Assembly: GCA_018897435.1 (NCBI GenBank)
Contig: JAHIKI010000044.1
Coordinates: 24,293-88,292, forward strand
Source: Acidobacteriota bacterium
GTDB taxonomy: Bacteria; Acidobacteriota; Aminicenantia; UBA2199
DNA length: 64,000 bases
Direction of reading: 5' to 3'
A program made the position numbers. Shown here piece by piece: positions 1-3,000 of this stretch (position 1 is the stretch's first letter; every line of letters begins with the position of its first letter).

Positions 1-3000
1 CATGAGTACTGAAAAAACCGATGCCAAGATCGATGGCGAATGCCTGGCTCTTGGCCGTTACCTGTTCAATCAGGAAGTCAATGAATACGTGCGTGACAAA
101 TACAGGTCCGCTAACGCCATGCTCGGGCTGGGAAACACTGTTGGACATTTCGATGCTTTGCTGGTAAGCATCGCCGTGCGCCACCCGCTGCTGGCCAAAG
201 CCTGCGATGCCTACGCGCGTTTCTTTTTGCCTCAGGGGGCCTTGCGAAAAAAAATGGTCCTGCTGCTCGCCATCGCCGAAGTGACCCCGCCCACCTTCCG
301 TTTCCTCGATGCAACCGATTCCGGAGGGTGGTTTATGTTTTTCGTCCGGATCATGTGGAAGGGGATGGGCATGGTTTTTTTCCTGCTGCCGGCATTGTTC
401 GTTTTGTTGCCGCTGCAACTGCTATTGAAAATGATCGGGTTCACACGATGGAAAGGGGAGTCCCATGTCTGAAGTCACCATCGTCGGTTCGGGAGCCAGT
501 GCCGTTCATTTTGTTTTGTCGGTTTTGCAAATGGGCTACACCGTCACCATGCTCGACGTAGGCTATGCCAAGCCAGAGACGGTCAATCCCAAGGATACTT
601 TGAACGGGCTGAAGGAAAACCTCGCTGATCCAGTGGGATATTTCCTGGGGAAAAAATACCAGGCTCTGATCCTGCCCGATGCCGAAAAGGAGTACTATGG
701 CATTCCGCCGAGCAAAGATTACGTTTTCAAGATCCCTGAAAATTTCCGGGAGCAGTCAACGGGATTCGAGCCCCTTTTTTCTTTTGCCCGGGGCGGACTG
801 GCCGAAGCCTGGACCGGTGGGGCCTACGCCTATAACGATGAGGAACTCGCCGATTTCCCTTTCCAATACGGTGACATTGAACCGTTCTACAACGAAATCG
901 CTAAACGGATCGGTATTTTGGGCGACAATGATGACCTGGCCCGCTTTCATCCATGGCATGAGCATCTGTTGCCGCCACTGGAACTCGATGAACACGCGGC
1001 TCTTCTCTATGCTGGCTATCAGGGGAAAAGAGAGTTGCTGCAGAAAAAATTCTCCTGCTATTTCGGCCGCTCGCGCTTGGCGGTGCTGAGCCGCGATTTC
1101 GCTGGCCGCCAAGCTTGCGATTACAGCGGCCGCTGCATGTGGGGCTGCCCCAGTGATTCCCTCTACGTCCCATCCCTGACTCTGGAAATCTGTTTGACCT
1201 TCCCGACCTTCACCTATATCCCCAAAATGCTGGTCACCCATTTCAATTATGGCGCCGCCAACCGCATTGAAACCGTGGTCGCCTACGATCTGGAGAAAAA
1301 GCAGGCCCGAGAATTCCCGGTGCGCCGTTTGGTGCTCGCCGCCGGCACCTTGGGTACGGCCAAGATATTTCTCAACTCCATTCACCGTCAGACAGGACAA
1401 ATTCTGACTCTGCCGGGCTTGATGGACAACCGCCAGATACTGATTCCTTTCATCAACCTGCAACTGGTCGGCAAGCCCTTCAAGCCGGAAACTTACCAAT
1501 ACCACCAGCTGGCTATGGGTATCGCCGCAGCCGATCCCAGGAAATTTGTCCACGGGCAGATCACGACCCTAAAAACGGCATTGATGCATCCGATCATCAA
1601 AGACATCCCCTTAGACCTAAAAACCTCGATATTTTTAGGTCGCAACCTGCACGCCGCCCTGGGCGTGGCCAATATCAACTTTCACGACGATCGCCGTCCG
1701 GGCAACTACGTGACGATAACGGCTGACCCCGATCCGCTGCGGGCCAAGCTGCTCATCAAGTATTCGCCACCTGACCGGGAAAATAAAAATTTGAAAAACC
1801 TGATCAGCCAGGTCAAGCGCATATTGCTGAAACTGGGAGTGGTCGTGCCGCCGGGCATGCTGCACGTCAGGCCCATGGGTGCCAGTGTGCACTACGCCGG
1901 CGTCATTCCCATGTCAACGGCGTCAGCCCCTTTGACGGCCTCGCCTAATTGCCGCAGCCATGATTTCCCCAACCTGCATTTTGTGGATGGCAGCAGTTTT
2001 CCTTTCCTGCCGGCCAAAAACCTGACTTTTACTCTGATGGCGAATGCCGCCCGGGTAGCCAAAAAAGAATTTTAAAAGTTTGCTTCATCCCTACGAACCT
2101 AGCCCGCATTTCTCACAAATATTTGCTGCAATTGCGGATATGAGCATGTCTACGGCGTCAGGCTTGGTCGGAACCCTCCATCGTACCAACAGTACGTCTC
2201 CGGTCTCCTCGGTCGCCTTCCTTGTATCCATACCCATCTGCGCAATTTCGCGACAATATCAGTGAGAAATGTGGGCTAAGTCTGGCGCTAGGCGGGCATG
2301 AATGGTTTTGTTGATTCGAGATCTAATTGAGGTGGGAACGCCTCATGCGGAAGATCCCTTTGATATCCAGCCACATGGTTCTTAGGATCTTTACCCGGGA
2401 ATCCTTGTCTTCAATCCAGCGCACCGGCAGCTCTTTCACTTTGTAGCCTCTTTTGTGCGCCAGGTACAAAAGCTCGGTATCGAAAAACCATTCGTCATCG
2501 AGGATCAAGGGGAACAGTTCATTGACCGCTTTTTTTGACATGGCCTTGAAGCCGCATTGGGCGTCGGTGAAAGGAAATTTTAAAAGCAGTTTCAAAATTA
2601 AAATATACCCTTGCGAAATGATCTCCCGCTTCAGGCTGCGCTCCACCACCGATCCCTTGTACTGCCTGGAGCCGATGGAGACATCGTTTCCATCGGCAAT
2701 GGCTTGAACCAGCGGCGGCAGCGCTTGCAGGTCCGTGGAAAGATCGATATCCATGTAGGCCAAAATTTGTGCTTCGCTTTTCATCCAGGCATACTTAACC
2801 ATCCGGCCGCGGCCTTTTTGGTTTAGATGGAATACCCGGACATCGGGGTATTGGGCTGTCAGCTGTTTTGCTTTTTCAAGCGTTTTGTCGGTAGATGCAT
2901 TGTCGCCGATGGAAATCATCCATTGGAAGTTGTCAAGATTTTTCTGGAGAAAACTGCGCAGTGTAGTTACGCTCTTTTCAAGAGTGTGTTCTTCATTATA

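Follow-up and report, generated by a model that had tools for sequence, protein, structure and literature searches.

The stretch of DNA analysed here, 64,000 nucleotides of an Acidobacteriota bacterium (assembly GCA_018897435.1, contig JAHIKI010000044.1, positions 24,293 to 88,292; hereafter the window), carries two copies, A and B, of a MITE (a miniature transposable element with inverted repeats) whose ends are, as judged from their sequence, the terminal inverted repeats (TIRs) of IS1380-family insertion sequences (ISs). We consider it very probable that both copies belong to a MITE of the IS1380 type that is moved in trans and inserts at YTAR tetranucleotides, that copy B has been deleted internally, and that the element is nearly neutral for its host. 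The element proper (CCCGCATTTCTCAC...GTGAGAAATGCGGG) is typically 173 nt long and contains no gene.

Two copies of one element in the window

In both copies the mobile unit is CCC...GGG, with a 4-bp duplication on each side. The features are as follows, in window coordinates.

2099..2102, left target-site duplication of copy A, plus-strand reading CTAG
2103..2275, minus strand (the better-folding 'sense' strand), copy A, full-length 173-nt MITE core CCC...GGG
2103..2137, plus strand, type-1 arm of copy A, CCCGCATTTCTCACAAATATTTGCTGCAATTGCGG, in which the first 21 nt form a putative TIR of the transposase-recognition type
2241..2275, minus strand, type-2 arm of copy A, minus-strand reading CCCACATTTCTCACTGATATTGTCGCGAAATTGCGC
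2276..2279, right target-site duplication of copy A, plus-strand reading CTAA
62164..62167, left target-site duplication of copy B, TTAG, in which the GNAT/RimI-like gene 61712-62167(+) has its stop codon, TAG
62168..62226, plus strand (the sense strand is the window plus strand, inverse to copy A), copy B, internally deleted 59-nt MITE
62227..62230, right target-site duplication of copy B, TTAG; 62227-62229, TTA (complement TAA), terminates the response-regulator/HD gene 62227-63393(-)

With up to 3 mismatches allowed, the 22-nt arm GCCCGCATTTCTCACAAATATT is present at exactly four sites of the window, 2102-2123(+), 2255-2276(-), 62167-62188(+) and 62206-62227(-), versus none in 100 dinucleotide-preserving shuffles. 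A repeat search also recovers the arms of copy A (2097-2123 and 2255-2281; 27 nt, 85% complementarity), and a 23-nt stretch, ATTTCTCACAAATATTTGCTGCA, is identical between the left end of copy A and the reverse complement of the right end of copy B. The two ends of the element are consistently distinct (...CACAGATATTGTCGCG versus ...CACAAATATTTGCTGC): ...CACAAATATTTGCTGC marks the type-1 end and ...CAC(A/T)GATATTGTCGCG the type-2 end. Since the type-1 end lies on the left in copy A and on the right in copy B, copy B is inverted relative to copy A.

A preliminary description of this DNA had placed two elements at 2102-2276 and 62167..62226, with a 23-nt inverse identity between them and convergent genes around both. 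The elements and the identity are found at those places, and gene calls and domain matches agree on the convergent neighbours; the boundaries have to be moved inwards, as each end takes in one base of the duplication. Copy A is indeed bounded by TIRs, as had been described, with the refinement that over its whole length it is a single long imperfect palindrome. In copy B the type-2 arm is joined to the type-1 arm across an AATTGC-like microhomology (...GTCGCGCAAATGCAGCAAATATT...), and the AATTGC motif is found on both sides at the base of the internal hairpin; the earlier picture of a minimal copy made of two TIRs back to back is descriptively right, and copy B is a copy A-type element minus its middle, that is, an internal-deletion derivative.

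A family of 79 copies at 45 loci

A degenerate 22-mer was scanned once against each of two public collections, giving 40 loci in the genomes and 70 in the metagenomes (individual loci are given below by L numbers), and the arms were then paired. The count of further copies, which the preliminary description had suggested, comes to 79 paired copies at 45 distinct loci, with flanks that are unrelated right up to the ends of the element; at least 10 loci carry the family in a single metagenome-assembled genome (MAG), PFL21. The copies are 90-99% identical to each other, their outer 14-22 nt are nearly invariant, and every one has one type-1 and one type-2 end. The core sizes are distributed as follows.

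173 nt, 47 copies
174-175 nt, 8 copies
203-204 nt (with an extra internal hairpin of about 30 nt), 9 copies
229-231 nt, 7 copies
161 nt, 1 copy
75 nt, 3 copies
59 nt, 4 copies

The family has no coding capacity: its cores span only 59-231 nt, and indels among the copies disrupt any reading frame. A 48-codon open reading frame (ORF), 2091-2237(-), does span copy A; a coding role for it was rejected, as indels in other copies break the frame. Three solo arms (L053, L097, L113) are truncated remnants, and four lone arm matches are without a partner (L004, L039, L090, L101), two of which, L004 and L039, look on inspection like coding sequence.

An element identical to copy B occupies the same locus in L045 and L057. 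At another orthologous locus with common flanks the element is 174-175 nt long in L093 and L096, 75 nt in L001, L099 and L112, and 59 nt in L009; since these size versions share their flanks, the loss of the middle occurs in place. Other orthologous copies, L023/L026 (203 nt) versus L087 (173 nt), L022/L076 (173 nt) versus L067/L111 (229 nt) and L118 (204 nt) versus L119 (174 nt), differ in an internal palindromic segment of about 30 or 56 nt, which one side has and the other lacks; either the insert was gained and lost in place, or copies were overwritten by gene conversion.

The ends are those of IS1380-family insertion sequences

Searched with blastn against plasmids, a 30-nt TIR probe gives matches that adjoin genes annotated as 'IS1380 family transposase'. 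One of them, L043 on the Stutzerimonas zhaodongensis plasmid NZ_CP076684, is a complete IS of 1.66 kb, reading from CCCGCATTTCTCACAG to CTGTGAGAAATGCGGG between two copies of CTAG, with a single 460-aa ORF annotated as an IS1380-family transposase; a 1.66-kb element encoding WP_034018616.1 is listed for both NZ_CP076684 and P. putida pKF715A. The type-2 consensus of our family, CCCGCATTTCTCACAGATATTG, agrees with the TIR of the L043 IS at 16/16 positions. Two further complete ISs come from metagenomes: L094, flanked by CTAG on both sides, has a right end, CCCGCATTTCTCACAGATATTG, identical to the type-2 arm consensus (22/22), and the right end of L100, CCCGCATTTCTCACAAATATT, is identical to the type-1 arm (21/21). 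Partial relatives are present at L089 and L064 in the metagenome scan. The transposases of L043, L094 and L100 match PF13701 with E-values of 1e-151 to 1e-156 and the NCBIfam equivalog NF033539 (IS1380) with 406-407 bits, where the cut-off is 180. They belong to a large clade (>8000 homologues at E ≤ 1e-40); the named entries among the best 120 homologues are from Acidiferrales and Rhodocyclaceae, not from Aminicenantes. On the P. putida plasmid pKF715A (L042) two adjacent IS1380-family transposase genes, 3099-4481 and 4774-6018, are 29% identical to each other and adjoin IS30 transposase and benzoate dioxygenase genes.

The same outer TIR, RCCCG(C/G/T)ATTTCTCAC, is also found on short elements with unrelated interiors in several other bacteria.

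Balneolaceae: L006, L011, L017, L020, L033, L034
Acidobacteria UBA6911: L029
Calothrix plasmid: L041, 2864-3026
Nostoc plasmids: L122, about 2499-2640; L123, about 2499-2650
Metagenomes: L052, L108, L078/L082

This distribution suggests that several independent MITE families may have been built on one widespread IS1380 clade; a common TIR around unrelated interiors is expected in that case, because the TIR would be what the widespread transposase recognises. One of the Balneolaceae loci, L011, has a weak IS1380-transposase match at 192-821 (24% identity, E 4e-5). A 201-nt element used as blastn query against phage and plasmid collections returned only chance-level matches, save for the TIR match in the Calothrix plasmid, and neither the TIR sequence nor Aminicenantes MITEs turned up in a literature search.

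Target-site duplication and stop codons

A search for target-site duplications, another step that the preliminary description had pointed to, identifies a duplicated 4-bp target. The 4 bp flanking CCC...GGG are identical on the two sides at 25 of the 45 loci and differ at one position at 14 more, whereas shuffled pairings of the same tetranucleotides yield on average 9.7 and at most 17 identical pairs (1000 trials); other registers (2, 3, 5 or 6 bp) give no match. The duplications conform to YTAR (TTAA, CTAG, TTAG and CTAA), with TTAA as the commonest target (16/45 loci), and the TA found on each side of the element is the centre of YTAR. At copy B the duplication is perfect (TTAG/TTAG). At copy A it reads CTAG/CTAA on the plus strand; the orthologous L085 has TTAG on both sides, in element orientation, and therefore the window and its PFL21 counterpart (L002) each carry one later point change.

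Read on either strand, a YTAR target includes TAA or TAG. At 18 of the 45 loci the TAR of the duplication closes an ORF of at least 100 codons; in the case of copy B both neighbouring genes end in it, and before the insertion their stop codons overlapped in a single TTAG. Because the duplication restores YTAR on each side, insertions onto stop codons are harmless, which explains why copies build up at the ends of genes and between convergent ones. This requires no special targeting, since by rough arithmetic about one third of the tolerated intergenic YTAR sites are stop codons. The orientation bias at stop-codon contacts (type-1 end 16, type-2 end 7) is not significant.

Filled and empty sites

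The site of copy B is empty in L046 (PFL21), L047 and L049-L051, which have a spacer of 15-16 nt, and in L048, where the stop codons of the two genes overlap in TTAA at the exact corresponding position. The site of copy A is empty in L124-L126, in which the junction between the glycosyltransferase and GMC genes (GT2/GMC) measures 48-49 nt; these are relatives with 80-84% protein identity. Within the lineage non-orthologous copies are up to 99.4% identical (copy A versus L036), which argues for recent activity. Thus the many copies, the IS1380 TIRs, the 4-bp duplication, the empty sites and the lack of coding capacity all agree with the original proposal of a small non-autonomous mobile element family.

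These results can be brought together in the following mechanism. A DDE transposase of the IS1380 family, supplied in trans, would bind the 16-22-bp terminal repeats, and the element would insert at a YTAR tetranucleotide, which would then be duplicated. Copy B would have lost the long internal palindrome by a deletion between the short direct repeats that flank the hairpin at its base, probably through replication slippage in situ. The effect on the neighbouring genes is probably close to neutral; any read-through transcript would form a long hairpin, with a terminator or regulatory role not supported.

Several observations weigh against this mechanism and against the assignment to IS1380. 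The duplications are imperfect at 20 of the 45 loci, mostly by one transition, and the Nostoc elements with the same TIR duplicate AATG/GATG rather than YTAR. When the MITE is compared with eight IS ends there is no similarity beyond nt 16-22, and none of the compared ISs is therefore its direct parent. No IS1380 transposase was found with tblastn in the window or in about 100 loci of the host lineage (about 0.7 Mb), nor did the MITE-rich metagenome samples yield a full-length IS with the exact TIR.

Folding of the element and alternative explanations

On the minus strand copy A folds with an energy of −88.6 kcal/mol (z −8.7), compared to −68.2 kcal/mol on the plus strand. The hairpin of copy B, for which the preliminary description had given a stem of about 20 bp, has a stem of that length (−36.2 kcal/mol, z −4.3). 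All of the 32 copies examined fold better with the type-2 arm at the 5' end, with a mean gain of 15 kcal/mol. Among 37 unique copies, 17 variants preserve pairing on that strand only, versus 3 for the converse; with a structure derived from the other strand instead, this bias drops to 11:8. Paired columns are dominated by C>T and A>G changes and unpaired ones by G>A, and variability is 2.8% in the former versus 4.2% in the latter. The pattern is suggestive of a strand-specific constraint on the hairpin, being at the same time weak and partly circular. Selection of this kind, acting on an RNA-level 3'-end or stability element or on a single-stranded DNA intermediate in IS1380-type transposition, would explain the one-strand excess of G.U-preserving variants, the lower variability of paired columns and the sharing of one stop-codon site by genomes whose flanks are only about 70% identical; nevertheless we regard it as unlikely that the hairpin is kept in this way.

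The shared site just mentioned is that of L015 2116-2288 and L036 1130-1303, which occupy the same stop-codon position in the same orientation between flanks of about 70-73% identity. The two elements are 94.8% identical, while each matches other copies in the genome it comes from at 98-99%; recurrent insertion or gene conversion would account for this.

A stronger version of the same idea, in which the element functions above all as a structured hairpin of RNA or DNA (a stabiliser in the 3' untranslated region, an RNase III site or a bidirectional terminator) that was spread by or exapted from a mobile element and is under selection, would draw on the same facts: the asymmetric folding of 32/32 copies, the 17 versus 3 pairing-preserving variants with C>T and A>G dominant in paired columns only, the lower variability of those columns, and the orthologous site filled in two genomes. 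We consider it improbable. The folding asymmetry counts as one observation, since the copies share descent; the excess of pairing-preserving variants depends on the strand from which the structure is derived; orthologous copies decay by deletion; and the resemblance of the shared-site copies to those of their own genomes fits recurrent insertion or gene conversion. In Rfam 15 the only match in the window that reaches the gathering score is a tRNA, and a permissive scan of 2000-2400 (E = 10) finds nothing in the element. A terminator scan finds no terminator-like site at either hairpin of the window, and no T-run follows the stems. Orientation relative to the neighbouring genes is mixed (11 convergent, 6 tandem sense, 7 tandem antisense, 3 divergent), with sense and antisense nearly balanced in the tandem contexts. 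The earlier suggestion that such copies often act as terminators is therefore not upheld by the missing T-runs and the mixed orientations.

An origin from a Tc1/mariner/IS630-type MITE, like Correia, RUP and ERIC, with insertion at TA, its duplication and an IS630 transposase, would account for the TA...TA flanks of every copy, and size and whole-length palindrome are like those of ERIC and Correia. It is, however, very improbable: the duplication extends to 4 bp, the flanking tetranucleotides being identical far more often than in shuffled pairings (25/45 loci against 9.7), with TA merely its centre, and the ends (RCCCGCATTTCTCAC) are as in elements that encode an IS1380 transposase and not as in those of IS630. 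YTAR also agrees with the CTAG duplications of the full-length ISs at L043 and L094, and on this ground a mariner/IS630 origin can be set aside.

A REP/BIME-type element mobilised by a RAYT (IS200/IS605-like) enzyme, or some other hairpin-dependent single-strand transposon, would likewise be palindromic, lie outside genes and have a strand-asymmetric hairpin, and yet has almost no probability: our element has true TIRs and a 4-bp duplication, and we know of no REP or IS200/IS605 element that makes either; its ends are identical to IS1380 ends, and REPs, with 20-40 nt, are far shorter. Finally, that the similarity of the two window sites is due to chance or to a shared gene fragment, with no repeat family at all, which the preliminary description named as the counter-case, is refuted by the shuffles (0 matches versus 4), the 79 copies in unrelated contexts and the frame-breaking indels.

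Neighbouring genes and host lineage

The genes around each copy are convergent. Copy A is flanked by a gene for a GMC_oxred_C protein, 465-2075(+), and by one for a family-2 glycosyltransferase (Glycos_transf_2), 2323-3048(-). Copy B lies between the GNAT/RimI-like gene 61712-62167(+), which adjoins a TsaD-family (PF00814) gene, and the response regulator with an HD_5 domain, 62227-63393(-). The latter ORF is 388 aa long as called, nearly all of its homologues are 360 aa, and translation probably begins 28 codons downstream of the first ATG.

Over 6 kb the window is 95-98% identical to the Aminicenantes MAG PFL21, including the orthologous copy A (L002), which is itself 97.7% identical to that of the window. 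Where homologues of the flanking proteins carry a name, it is mostly Aminicenantes or Acidobacteria, and as far as seen in these sequences the 173-nt family appears to be confined to one Aminicenantes-like lineage. The labels of other MAGs would imply a spread across phyla; this is ruled out by the high identity of those MAGs to PFL21. As an example, PFL21 shares three loci with 'Chrysiogenales' SPCN01 at 97% identity, and loci with 'Patescibacteria' SMAG_U14233 at about 90%. The taxonomic labels or the binning thus appear to be wrong for several public assemblies.

Other observations touch on the same assemblies. Chrysiogenia JBDRQC01 is among the MAGs with loci at 90-97% nucleotide identity to PFL21 or to one another, and a contig labelled Fibrobacterota shares a locus (88% over 456 nt). 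The study behind PFL21 also produced a Thermodesulfovibrionales MAG with a copy on a single 4.8-kb contig, which at a guess reflects mis-binning. Two MITE loci exchange their flanks between MAGs: PFL21 (L013, L009) has X1-E-Y1 and X2-E-Y2, and SMAG_U14233 (L037, L024) has X1-E-Y2 and X2-E-Y1, where E is the element and X and Y are its flanks; metagenome contigs with 100% identical flanks (L083, L093) show the parental combinations too. The assemblies behind this exchange were built with k = 141, and it could represent either an inversion polymorphism arising by recombination between inverted copies or chimeric assembly across the 174-nt repeat. Finally, the window differs from PFL21 between two conserved genes, the PMT-like gene 3321-5027 and the gene 8206-9789: the DNA of window 5032-8128 is unlike that of L002 2767-4678. 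On the window side there is a 500-aa ORF, 5934-7436(+), with no Pfam match, and on the PFL21 side a sulfatase-family gene on the opposite strand, so that window 5032-8128 looks like a replaced cassette.

Comparison with known systems

IS1247 and ISEcp1 are examples of IS1380-family ISs, the termini of which begin with CC according to the ISfinder rule. Our element resembles such ISs in its CC start, in the agreement of its TIR with CCCGCATTTCTCACAG (16/16) and with the ends of L094 and L100 (21-22 positions), and in the 4-bp duplication, which is CTAG in L043 and L094. It differs from them in being 173 nt long, in lacking a transposase and in having no similarity past the TIR; IS1247, as a reference, measures 1672 bp and has 16-bp inverted repeats and a 5-bp direct repeat (PMC3281130).

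ERIC, Correia/NEMIS and RUP are the classical palindromic MITEs of bacteria (reviewed in PMC3184786). Like them, the present family consists of many intergenic copies of 100-200 nt that fold into a hairpin over the whole element, can lie inside transcripts and vary in size through internal deletion or insertion. Those elements, in contrast, have TA duplications and IS630-type or unknown transposases, versus a 4-bp YTAR duplication and IS1380 ends here; and for ERIC and Correia effects at the RNA level have been demonstrated.

Nezha, a cyanobacterial MITE of about 130-170 bp, has its TIR in common with ISNpu3 (PMC3184786). The likeness to MITEs of this type lies in a TIR that matches an IS found elsewhere and in the use of filled versus empty sites as evidence of mobility. 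The Nostoc and Calothrix plasmids of our scan carry elements of 140-160 nt with the outer TIR CCCGCATTTCTCAC / CCCGGATTTCTCAC and 4-bp duplications; unlike our family they have an unrelated interior and, as noted above, a target other than YTAR. The Nostoc elements may correspond to Nezha/ISNpu3.

The eukaryotic parallel is piggyBac, which duplicates TTAA and has termini starting with CCC. A 4-bp duplication, TTAA as the commonest target (16/45) and CCC termini are all found in the present family; on the other hand its target is relaxed to YTAR, its host is a bacterium, and there is no sign of precise excision in the manner of piggyBac. IS1380 transposases have served as the prokaryotic outgroup of piggyBac (PMC10813416, PMC10140906).

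Overall, this IS1380-ended MITE adds a new example to a well-known class of genomic parasites and is not a new kind of system, and it leaves the current understanding of transposons unchanged. What it provides is a defined repeat family, with consensus, ends, target and size variants, for a lineage that is uncultured and represented mainly by fragmented MAGs. Repeats of 173 nt exceed the k-mers commonly used by assemblers, and contigs therefore break or are mis-joined at them; moreover, loci identical in element and flanks in MAGs labelled as Aminicenantes, Chrysiogenales and Patescibacteria reveal mislabelled or mis-binned assemblies. The family also ties a MITE to IS1380, the relatives of piggyBac in bacteria, and provides an example of a YTAR/TTAA target. 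Lastly, it illustrates how an element can land harmlessly at the ends of genes by a simple rule: its target includes a stop codon on either strand and becomes duplicated upon insertion.

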